A DNA stretch of 64,000 bases from Escherichia coli (GTDB lineage: Bacteria; Pseudomonadota; Gammaproteobacteria; Enterobacterales; Enterobacteriaceae), in assembly GCF_046105845.1 (NCBI RefSeq), contig NZ_CP151004.1. One strand, given 5' to 3'. The notes beneath the pieces were generated by a model. The model was not told the DNA's origin, did no database searches, and worked only from the letters and a program-made list of their open reading frames with translations. How positions within the stretch are numbered: position 1 is the stretch's first letter; every line of letters begins with the position of its first letter. Position numbers and translations under genes: made by a program. Positions 34,468 through 37,470 of the stretch are shown in pieces.

Positions 34468-35706
34468 ATGGCTGACACTCGCCCTGAACGTCGCTTTACG
34501 CGCATTGATCGTCTCCCGCCCTACGTTTTTAATATTACCGCTGAACTGAAAATGGCTGCGCGTCGGCGCGGCGAAGATATTATCGATTTCAGTATGGGTA
34601 ACCCGGACGGTGCGACTCCGCCGCACATCGTCGAAAAATTATGTACGGTGGCCCAGCGCCCGGACACGCATGGTTACTCCACTTCACGCGGCATTCCGCG
34701 GCTACGTCGCGCCATTTCACGCTGGTATCAGGATCGCTACGACGTTGAAATCGACCCGGAATCAGAAGCCATCGTCACTATTGGTTCGAAAGAGGGACTG
34801 GCACATCTGATGCTGGCGACGCTGGATCATGGTGACACGGTGCTGGTGCCGAATCCAAGCTACCCCATTCATATTTATGGCGCGGTGATTGCCGGGGCGC
34901 AGGTACGCTCAGTGCCGCTGGTGGAAGGTGTCGATTTCTTCAATGAACTGGAGCGCGCCATTCGCGAAAGTTATCCGAAACCGAAGATGATGATCCTCGG
35001 CTTCCCGTCGAATCCAACCGCGCAATGCGTGGAGCTGGAGTTCTTCGAAAAGGTTGTGGCGCTGGCGAAACGCTACGATGTGCTGGTGGTCCATGACCTG
35101 GCCTATGCCGATATCGTCTACGATGGCTGGAAAGCGCCGTCAATCATGCAGGTGCCGGGTGCACGCGATGTGGCGGTCGAGTTCTTTACGCTGTCGAAAA
35201 GCTACAACATGGCGGGCTGGCGTATCGGCTTTATGGTTGGCAACAAAACGCTGGTCAGCGCGCTGGCACGTATTAAAAGCTATCACGATTACGGCACCTT
35301 TACGCCGTTGCAGGTGGCAGCGATTGCGGCGCTGGAGGGCGATCAACAGTGCGTGCGCGACATTGCTGAACAGTACAAACGCCGCCGTGATGTACTGGTA
35401 AAAGGGCTGCATGAAGCGGGCTGGATGGTCGAAATGCCGAAGGCTTCGATGTATGTCTGGGCGAAAATCCCGGAACCGTATGCTGCCATGGGCTCGCTGG
35501 AATTTGCCAAGAAGCTGCTGAACGAAGCGAAGGTCTGTGTCTCTCCGGGGATTGGCTTTGGCGACTACGGCGACACGCATGTTCGCTTTGCACTGATTGA
35601 AAACCGCGACCGTATTCGTCAGGCGATTCGTGGAATTAAAGCGATGTTCCGTGCCGATGGTTTACTACCCGCCAGCAGCAAACATATTCACGAAAATGCG
35701 GAATAA
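34468..35706 (+). CDS. alaC: Glutamate-pyruvate aminotransferase (PLP-dependent)
   Basis: 412-aa ORF with aminotransferase class I features ([12 protein letters not shown]). Confidence 0.9.
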
Positions 35707-35770
35707 ACACCGACCTCAAAAATGCAAACAGGAGCCTGATGGCTCCTGTTTTTCATTGCACAGTTTGCTT

Positions 35771-35842
35771 TTAGATCATCAGGGCAAAAGTACCGGCCCA
35801 AACGATGACCATAAAAGAAATGCCCATAAAGAAATATTTCAC
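35771..35842 (-). CDS. ypdK: Small membrane protein YpdK (23 aa, GTG start)
   Basis: Minus-strand translation GTG AAA TAT TTC... gives (M)KYFFMGISFMVIVWAGTFALMI; below the ORF-track size cutoff. Confidence 0.7.
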   Translation of the reverse strand: MKYFFMGISFMVIVWAGTFALMI

Positions 35843-36197
35843 TTTACATCTCTCCGCGTAATTACTGTTACGCCTGAATGACTTCATTACACCTGATACA
35901 GTGAGTTGACACCGGGCAAAACGACCTTAAAAGTCCTGTATTTTACCGTGGGCATCACCCCAGAATTCTGAGCTAAACTGCTCCAGACGGCGCTAATGTA
36001 CGCCTAAAACTGAAACGAGACAAGAGGCATTTTCTTATTTACTTTTAGTAACTTACAGGTGTCTCATATCGGCGACAGTTTAATTTCTGGCGGTAATAAT
36101 TAGAGATTCAGCGAAGGAAAAAACCTTAAGAAAAAAGCCATAAAAACCATGAGGTTATTATGGCTGATTTGAGGAGGGAAAGAGTAAGAGCAGTTTG

Positions 36198-37118
36198 TTA
36201 AATGTATAGCGACGATTCTCCCACCGGGCGCGTTTTAAAGCGACGGTGGATCCAGAGGTACTGCTCCGGTGCGCGCATGATCTCTTTTTCGATAATCTTG
36301 TTCATATAGGCAGCGGCTTGATTTTCATCTGCCGGGTAGCCTTCCATCTCTGGGGTGATGTACAAACGATATCCGCTGTAATCCGCTTTTCTTACCATCG
36401 TTACGGTTAACATGGCTGCGCCAGAGAGACGTGAAAGGACATACGTACCATTGGTTGTGGCAACATTTTCCACCGCAAAGAACGGCGCGAAGGAGCTGCC
36501 TTTACGACCATAATCCTGATCGGGAGCAAACCATACCGCTTCACCTTTCTTCAGTGCACCGACAATGCCGCGCAGATTATTTCTGCCGATCATCGCTTTG
36601 TTAGAGCGCATGCGCCCACGGGTCTGCACCCATTCCATCAGCTGATTATTATGTGGACGATAGGTAGCCATCATTGGTTGGCACAGTCCCATCACGCGGC
36701 CGCCCAGTTCCAGCGACATAAAATGGACGCCGACAACCATTACGCCGCGATTTTGCATTTGTGCGCGTTTAAGGTTATCCAACCCTTCAACATCAAACCA
36801 TTTACGTACGCGACTGTCGGGCCAGAACCACGCCATGCCGGTTTCTACCAGCGCCATGCCGAGTGAACGAAAGTTTTCGGCAATCATCTTCTCGCGTTCT
36901 TCCGCAGAATGCTGTGGGAAACAAAGTTCCAGGTTTTTACGGGCGATAGATTCACGCCGTTTCAGGAATGGTCGCGCTATTGCGCCAATACGCGTGCCGA
37001 GAAAGCAGAGAACAGGATAAGGAAGCTGTACCCAAAGCCAGAGTACACCAAGCCCAAACCATGTGAGCCAGTAGCGAGGATGTAGAAACTCGCGGGAAAA
37101 TTTGCATTGTGGAAACAT
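36198..37118 (-). CDS. lpxP: Lipid A biosynthesis palmitoleoyl acyltransferase (start taken at MFPQCKFSREF)
   Basis: Recognised as LpxP/LpxL-family late acyltransferase. Confidence 0.9.
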   Translation of the reverse strand: MFPQCKFSREFLHPRYWLTWFGLGVLWLWVQLPYPVLCFLGTRIGAIARPFLKRRESIARKNLELCFPQHSAEEREKMIAENFRSLGMALVETGMAWFWPDSRVRKWFDVEGLDNLKRAQMQNRGVMVVGVHFMSLELGGRVMGLCQPMMATYRPHNNQLMEWVQTRGRMRSNKAMIGRNNLRGIVGALKKGEAVWFAPDQDYGRKGSSFAPFFAVENVATTNGTYVLSRLSGAAMLTVTMVRKADYSGYRLYITPEMEGYPADENQAAAYMNKIIEKEIMRAPEQYLWIHRRFKTRPVGESSLYI

Positions 37119-37470
37119 AGTTACCTTCTGTAGATACGAATTGTTGTATCGCAGAAGATTCCATGTCGACAGCGGTACACTCAATTGGTTGGGCCATCAT
37201 GTACGACAATGGTTCCTGTAAAGAGTGTAAAGACTAGTCAGGACATAACCACGAGGAGCATGAATGCGGTGGCTCTACTTTATCACTGGCTGACTGCTTT
37301 CAGCTACTGATTATTAATCGTGCAAAGTAAAAAGTTTTCCCCACGCAATAGTGTTGCATTTAAGGTGCTGTTTTCATTGATGCTTAGCAAAAATTGCCAG
37401 AGGTTAAGGATTGTCTTACTATTAAAGTGACTGAAGTTACAGGTTTTTTAGCGCGGCAGGAGGTTGAGCT

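Follow-up and report, generated by a model that had tools for sequence, protein, structure and literature searches.

INTRODUCTION

Escherichia coli has several small single-pass inner-membrane proteins that serve as accessories to larger transporters and enzymes. They include AcrZ, MgtS, CydX, and KdpF, which are accessories of AcrB, MgtA, CydAB, and KdpABC, respectively. Type I toxins are another group of small peptides, with IbsA to IbsE, TisB, DinQ, and ShoB as members. Here, we describe a comparative analysis of a very small E. coli gene whose predicted product has features in common with both groups.

The gene lies in a 64,000-nucleotide stretch of E. coli DNA (RefSeq assembly GCF_046105845.1, contig NZ_CP151004.1), referred to below as the window. 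An initial annotation, made from the sequence of the window, proposed that a GTG-initiated 23-residue membrane microprotein is encoded on the minus strand between alaC and lpxP, and it recognized the product as YpdK.

RESULTS

The flagged reading frame is ypdK

The minus strand of the window holds a 72-nt coding sequence at positions 35771 to 35842. It has a GTG start (35842 to 35840), 23 sense codons, and a TAA stop (35773 to 35771). The codons read GTG AAA TAT TTC ... ATC TAA (GTG-KYFFMGISFMVIVWAGTFALMI-stop), translation gives VKYFFMGISFMVIVWAGTFALMI followed by a stop, and the product is (f)MKYFFMGISFMVIVWAGTFALMI. On one side is the AlaC ORF (412 amino acids, 34468 to 35706, plus strand), which is tail to tail with ypdK with 68 nt between the two stops. 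On the other is LpxP, also on the minus strand, which ends at 36198. Translation and the flanking ORFs therefore bear out the frame that was proposed. (The mechanical lpxP ORF at 36198 to 37184 on the minus strand has a TTG start and 328 codons, whereas the annotated LpxP has 306 amino acids and begins MFPQCKF.)

The name given to the peptide was also right. It is 100% identical to its K-12 MG1655 counterpart, b4680 (YP_002791250.1, "putative membrane protein YpdK," 2496921 to 2496992, plus strand). It scored 57.5 bits against the NCBIfam equivalog model for YpdK, NF033437.1 (cutoff, 30), with residues 1 to 23 on positions 1 to 23 of the 23-position profile. A megablast search with window region 35650 to 36250 matched 5,422 of 5,426 complete E. 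coli genomes at 95 to 100% identity, and every record among the matches listed had the RefSeq label "membrane protein YpdK" at this locus. A 100%-identical record has a 72-nt CDS (WP_010723117.1) between lpxP and alaC. The exact peptide is in public protein collections (NCBI and UniRef) as "Uncharacterized membrane protein YpdK," on at least 1,000 contigs. The 491-position spacer between lpxP and alaC has 10 differences between the window and K-12, all of which lie outside the CDS. A Pfam search assigned the peptide to no family, and a PDB search returned no relative and no solved structure.

The flagged ORF is therefore ypdK (b4680), an E. coli gene that was already catalogued. Because it has been in the K-12 annotation and the NCBI naming models for years, it is nothing new as a discovery. 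PMC3009722 counts ypdK among the 18 small ORFs that Hemm et al. reported, calling the product a putative single-transmembrane peptide, and its tiling arrays detected a transcript overlapping ypdK that changed after UV. Further papers naming ypdK use it only as a landmark or a machine-learning feature, and the main text of the Weaver preprint does not mention it. None of the literature that we found naming the gene reports a phenotype, partner, or interaction.

The initial annotation described ypdK as invisible to the ORF track. This is fair, because even when its frame is extended mechanically to 38 amino acids (see below), it is still below the 60-amino-acid filter. The only ORF of at least 60 amino acids over the ypdK site is at 35597 to 35881 on the plus strand. 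It is a mechanical, TTG-started ORF of 94 amino acids that runs from the 3' end of alaC through the terminator, antisense to ypdK, and a track of ORFs of at least 60 amino acids would display this spurious ORF in place of ypdK. The broader lesson drawn at the time, that length-filtered ORF calling misses small genes with non-ATG starts, is valid but well known.

The YpdK peptide is conserved at the codon level

To avoid circularity, we anchored the ortholog sample on AlaC rather than on the peptide. Loci were fetched via AlaC from 80 species of Enterobacterales, with one genome each. A YpdK-like ORF convergent to alaC was present in 75 of the 80 species. One of the remaining five loci was cut by a contig end, and the other four AlaC-anchored loci did not have ypdK (Erwinia endophytica, a Symbiopectobacterium, Lonsdalea, and a record labeled Pseudomonas resinovorans). 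The last of these (locus L079, NZ_AUIE01000007.1, titled Pseudomonas resinovorans DSM 21078) encodes an AlaC that is 91% identical to that of E. coli, and it looks like contamination, mislabeling, or a recent transfer.

Together with the window, the sample comprised 76 ypdK loci. YpdK has 23 amino acids in 56 of them and 24 in 20, the longer forms having an extra E, K, or A at the C terminus. In 69 distinct coding sequences, the mean column entropies at codon positions 1, 2, and 3 were 0.61, 0.20, and 1.18. The Nei-Gojobori pN/pS ratio was 0.28 in frame, compared with 1.14 and 2.22 in the other two frames. Seven residues are invariant (Y3, M6, G7, S9, G17, T18, and F19), and W15 is present in 74 of 76 loci. 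At each of the invariant residues G7, S9, G17, and T18, all four synonymous codons are used. The entropy pattern, the in-frame pN/pS ratio, and this synonymous codon turnover argue that selection acts on the peptide itself. By these comparative measures, ypdK is clearly under protein-level purifying selection in enteric bacteria and is not a chance ORF. Conservation of the frame had been suggested as a check on the gene, and a lack of codon-level conservation as the result that would count against it. The frame was kept in a sample drawn independently of ypdK, and the codon-level test clearly came out in favor of the gene.

The position of ypdK relative to alaC is stable, with a stop-to-stop gap of no more than 230 nt in 72 of 76 loci. 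Its other side is not. An upstream lpxP gene was found only in Escherichia, Salmonella, Citrobacter, and Enterobacter, and elsewhere the gene on this side, which may point either way, comes from one of more than 25 unrelated families. Across the surveyed loci, ypdK has no membrane-protein gene as a conserved, co-oriented neighbor, and no partner is encoded next door. We also observed that in 16 Erwiniaceae loci (within L057 to L081; Pantoea, Erwinia, and Mixta), a co-oriented gene for an HlyD-family membrane-fusion/efflux adaptor is located approximately 200 nt 5' of ypdK (Pfam HlyD_D23, 73 bits). The Erwiniaceae are the only lineage in which ypdK is beside a membrane-transport component.

The start codon is GTG and is invariant

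All 76 loci (75 species and the window) have a GTG start. The second codon is AAA in 74 of them and AGA in 2, and it is never AAG. A Shine-Dalgarno sequence, GGAGAG, can be read on the minus strand of the window at 35850 to 35855, 7 nt 5' of the GTG, or 9 nt if counted from the GGAG core. The same core or a close variant of it precedes the GTG by 7 to 9 nt in 76 of 76 loci.

In the mechanical ORF list, the frame begins instead at an in-frame upstream ATG (35885 to 35887, minus strand), which makes it 38 amino acids long. If translation began there, then the E. coli product would be an isoform, MKSFRRNSNYAERCK-VKYFF..., with a basic cytoplasmic tail added to the helix. ATG is normally a stronger start than GTG, and both the window and the E. 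coli representative of the sample (L002) have an open frame from this ATG. However, the extension is limited to these two E. coli loci, and in most other genera a TGA or TAA interrupts the frame one or two codons 5' of the GTG. The only Shine-Dalgarno-like sequence available to the ATG, AGGTG, ends 2 nt before it and is therefore too near, whereas the GTG is preceded by one of the GGAG type. Furthermore, the NCBIfam profile spans only residues 17 to 38 of the longer form, and both RefSeq and the K-12 curators annotate the 23-amino-acid form. We consider the 38-amino-acid product highly improbable and rejected the upstream ATG. On this comparative evidence, the start of ypdK is the GTG.

The GTG has remained invariant while synonymous change elsewhere in the gene is saturated (pS, 0.61). 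This suggests that a weak start combined with a favorable AAA codon is itself selected.

The spacer between the Shine-Dalgarno sequence and the GTG (35840 to 35849, minus strand) has a feature of its own. In E. coli it contains an out-of-frame ATG followed directly by TAA, a start-stop. Most other genera have GATGA at the same place, which combines an out-of-frame ATG with a TGA that is in frame and two codons ahead of the GTG. This stretch has been kept although it codes for nothing under selection. We rejected its ATG as an alternative start, given that it forms ATG-TAA in E. coli and that the off-frame pN/pS ratios exceed 1.

ypdK appears to be an autonomous transcription unit

A motif, cTTGt-N17-TAnATTAGCGcc (also given as cTTGt-N17-TAcATTAGCGcc), precedes the GTG in 74 of 76 loci, regardless of which gene is upstream. 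Its distance to the GTG has a median of 157 nt and a range of 48 to 195 nt. In the window, it is at 35995 to 36023 on the minus strand, where a −35 element, TTGTCT (36023 to 36018), is followed by a 17-nt spacer, a −10 element, TACATT (36000 to 35995), and then a GC-rich AGCGCC. The −10 element varies among 70 distinct regions (TACATT in 52, TAAATT in 12, TAGATT in 5, and TATATT in 1). We propose, from phylogenetic footprinting only, that this motif is a candidate ypdK promoter. A σ70 consensus scan found no minus-strand promoter at ypdK. The simple scan missed the candidate because it matches the consensus at only 8 of 12 positions in E. coli (5 to 9 of 12 overall). Conservation of the 10-nt block TAcATTAGCG goes well beyond what a σ70 −10 element requires, and the block may also bind a regulator or act as a discriminator.

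In loci L013 to L054, which include many Enterobacteriaceae, there is a σS-like/TATAAT box (TCTATACT or TCTATAAT) inside the leader, approximately 55 nt 5' of the GTG. It could be a second, proximal promoter in those species. The box is degenerate in E. coli (CACTGTATCAG, window positions 35896 to 35906) and in Citrobacter (CTCTCTGTCAG), and we dropped it as an E. coli promoter for that reason.

Downstream, a terminator scan identified a predicted intrinsic terminator at 35716 to 35751, between the convergent ypdK and alaC genes. Its hairpin (35751 to 35726), AAACAGGAGCC-atca-GGCTCCTGTTT, can be read on both strands and has an A-tract on one side and a T-tract on the other. The RNAs of the two strands fold with ΔG values of −21.3 (z, −4.25) and −20.9 (z, −4.55). 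A global RNAalifold analysis of the terminator over all taxa returned 0 pairs. Because the cross-taxa alignment was too divergent for that approach, we scored conservation hairpin by hairpin in each sequence. A strong hairpin lies 0 to 26 nt past the ypdK stop in 76 of 76 loci, with a median ΔG of −20.8 kcal/mol. The stems represent at least six unrelated sequences (CAGGAGCC, AGGCGCC, AAGCGCC, GGGGCGAC, GGGTCAGG, and AAGGGACGC). The hairpin is probably a bidirectional terminator that serves both convergent genes.

Another hairpin, AGCCATAATAACC-tcat-GGTTTTTATGGCT (about 36165 to 36136), is followed by a T-run, and the whole element is located at 36130 to 36165 on the minus strand, approximately 35 nt past the lpxP stop. 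Its fold has a ΔG of −16.6 kcal/mol (z, −5.34), and 0 of 200 shuffles were as good. From this folding analysis, it is probably the lpxP terminator, separating lpxP from the ypdK unit. The terminator scan overlooked this hairpin, probably through its internal mismatch.

More than 25 types of upstream neighbor precede ypdK, yet the same promoter-like motif is present in 74 of 76 loci and a terminator hairpin in all 76, and lpxP appears to have a separate terminator. Therefore, ypdK looks like an autonomous miniunit with its own promoter-like motif, leader, and terminator.

The predicted leader contains two covarying helices

The predicted ypdK 5' leader is approximately 146 nt long (35843 to 35988, minus strand). 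RNAalifold analysis of 35 Enterobacteriaceae gave a weak consensus (−4.7 kcal/mol) with two helices on the minus strand, P2 (35961 to 35951 with 35913 to 35903) and P4 (35873 to 35868 with 35861 to 35856, abutting the Shine-Dalgarno sequence). In counts that use the same alignment from which the structure was derived, 90.3% of the P2 and P4 cells were paired, compared with 32 to 50% in slid controls. Double-change cells numbered 58 versus 8 to 20 in the controls, and the covariation score was 0.386 versus no more than 0.137. Two single-stranded blocks, AGAATTCTGAGGTGATGC and CTCTCTATAmTCAG, are also conserved. A 5'-terminal leader hairpin that seemed to covary by eye folded no better than shuffles (median z, −0.5), and we make no claim for it.

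These features raise the idea that the transcript acts mainly as an RNA, either a small regulatory or a dual-function one, with the ORF secondary or incidental. It is predicted to be short (approximately 265 nt) and autonomous, with an intrinsic terminator, and its leader has covarying helices and blocks conserved beyond what is expected of a spacer. However, purifying selection acts on the peptide, which excludes a purely noncoding version and leaves only a dual-function one. Also, the MFE z-score of the whole E. coli leader is only −1.58, and an Rfam search of the ypdK region yielded no family, just two subthreshold chance matches (a plastid psbJ 3' UTR and a snoRNA). A mainly RNA-acting transcript is therefore very unlikely.

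Another proposal sees in the leader a cis-regulatory or dual-function RNA, not described before, that either controls the microprotein or acts independently of it. Its parts would be the promoter-proximal TAcATTAGCGcc, P2, the single-stranded CTCTCTATAmTCAG, and P4 abutting the Shine-Dalgarno sequence. If this were true, then the absolute retention of GTG and AAA would reflect tuned, signal-dependent translation. We regard this as rather unlikely.

The leader also bears on whether YpdK is a type I toxin-like peptide of the Ibs, TisB, or DinQ class, with a long structured leader that blocks translation until processing or stress. A tiny, very hydrophobic peptide, a leader of this length with conserved helices, a weak GTG start, and the UV-responsive transcript noted above (PMC3009722) would all suit a toxin. 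However, the conserved helices leave the Shine-Dalgarno sequence free, because P4 stops directly 5' of GGAG, and our reading of the leader found no LexA-box-like sequence. Consensus scans found no antisense promoter or terminator over ypdK, which is weak evidence of absence, and there was no credible Rfam match. Type I toxin-antitoxin loci have an antisense RNA gene and are often multicopy and patchy, whereas ypdK is present as a single copy in the window, is syntenic in 75 of 80 species, and has been conserved vertically over three families. A toxin-like role is extremely improbable.

YpdK is predicted to be a single transmembrane helix

The GRAVY score of YpdK is 1.73 overall and 2.15 for residues 4 to 23. 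Position 2 is K or R in all orthologs. Among 40 distinct orthologous peptides, none has a charge, a strongly polar side chain, or a proline at any position from 4 to 22. We infer that YpdK is one transmembrane helix, its 20 apolar residues being just enough for one bilayer span. By the positive-inside rule, a single N-terminal positive charge places the N terminus inside and the C terminus outside. An N-in/C-out topology is therefore predicted for YpdK from its lone N-terminal charge.

Conservation is clustered at the two ends of the peptide, as KYxxMGxS and WxGTFxxM, and the middle is variable. We considered a model in which one face of the helix packs against another protein. It was rejected because conservation spans more than one helical face and its helical moment was not significant (moment ratio, 0.07; 3,461 of 5,000 permutations were as high).

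DISCUSSION

Taken as a whole, the analysis makes it very probable that ypdK is a bona fide gene that specifies a GTG-started, 23-residue, single-helix inner-membrane peptide from its own small transcription unit. In the model that we favor, the unit would consist of the promoter-like element, a partly structured leader of approximately 146 nt, a strong Shine-Dalgarno sequence, a deliberately weak GTG with AAA, and a terminator shared with alaC. The product, with one N-terminal lysine and then an unbroken run of 20 hydrophobic or small residues, would be inserted in the inner membrane. There, it might bind a larger membrane protein or complex and serve as its accessory or regulatory subunit. 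Contacts with the partner would be made through K-Y-x-x-M-G-x-S near the cytoplasmic face and W-x-G-T-F-x-x-M near the periplasmic face. We consider such a role, like that of AcrZ, MgtS, CydX, or KdpF, the most likely one for YpdK, but only tentatively and with less than even confidence. It is suggested by the analogy to those proteins and by small and aromatic residues that do not vary at either interface.

The gene itself was known, and the only mildly new material is comparative. It comprises the GTG/AAA invariance, the footprinted candidate promoter, the two covarying leader helices, and the putative shared terminator. The weak GTG, AAA, Shine-Dalgarno sequence, promoter-like motif, and structured leader are retained in the Enterobacteriaceae, the Erwiniaceae, and Serratia. 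Retention of all of these argues that the level of ypdK expression is under selection. For those who seek a partner or function, the alignment provides a residue map, with invariant Y3, M6, G7, S9, G17, T18, and F19 and a variable mid-bilayer core. The locus is also a clean positive control. A reader with only the sequence recognized a genuine gene of 23 codons with a GTG start, and comparative tests at the codon level recover that gene decisively.

How does YpdK compare with the small peptides that have been described? The gene in the window has no substantive difference from ypdK of K-12, with the same peptide, CDS boundaries, GTG start, and position between lpxP and alaC. It shares with the type I toxins IbsA to IbsE, TisB, DinQ, and ShoB a tiny hydrophobic peptide and an mRNA with a long 5' leader. 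However, it differs from them in that no antisense RNA was found, it is single copy, its synteny is stable, and its Shine-Dalgarno sequence is accessible. The cydX and kdpF genes sit in operons with their membrane complexes, whereas ypdK has variable upstream neighbors and was not co-operonic with a partner complex at the surveyed loci. By sequence alone, YpdK is a small single-pass protein of no more than 50 amino acids with one bilayer-length hydrophobic segment. AcrZ, MgtS, CydX, and KdpF are of the same type, with fewer than 50 amino acids, one hydrophobic helix, and one or two flanking charges. Like YpdK, they were missed by classical annotation and were found by conservation and ribosome-binding-site models.
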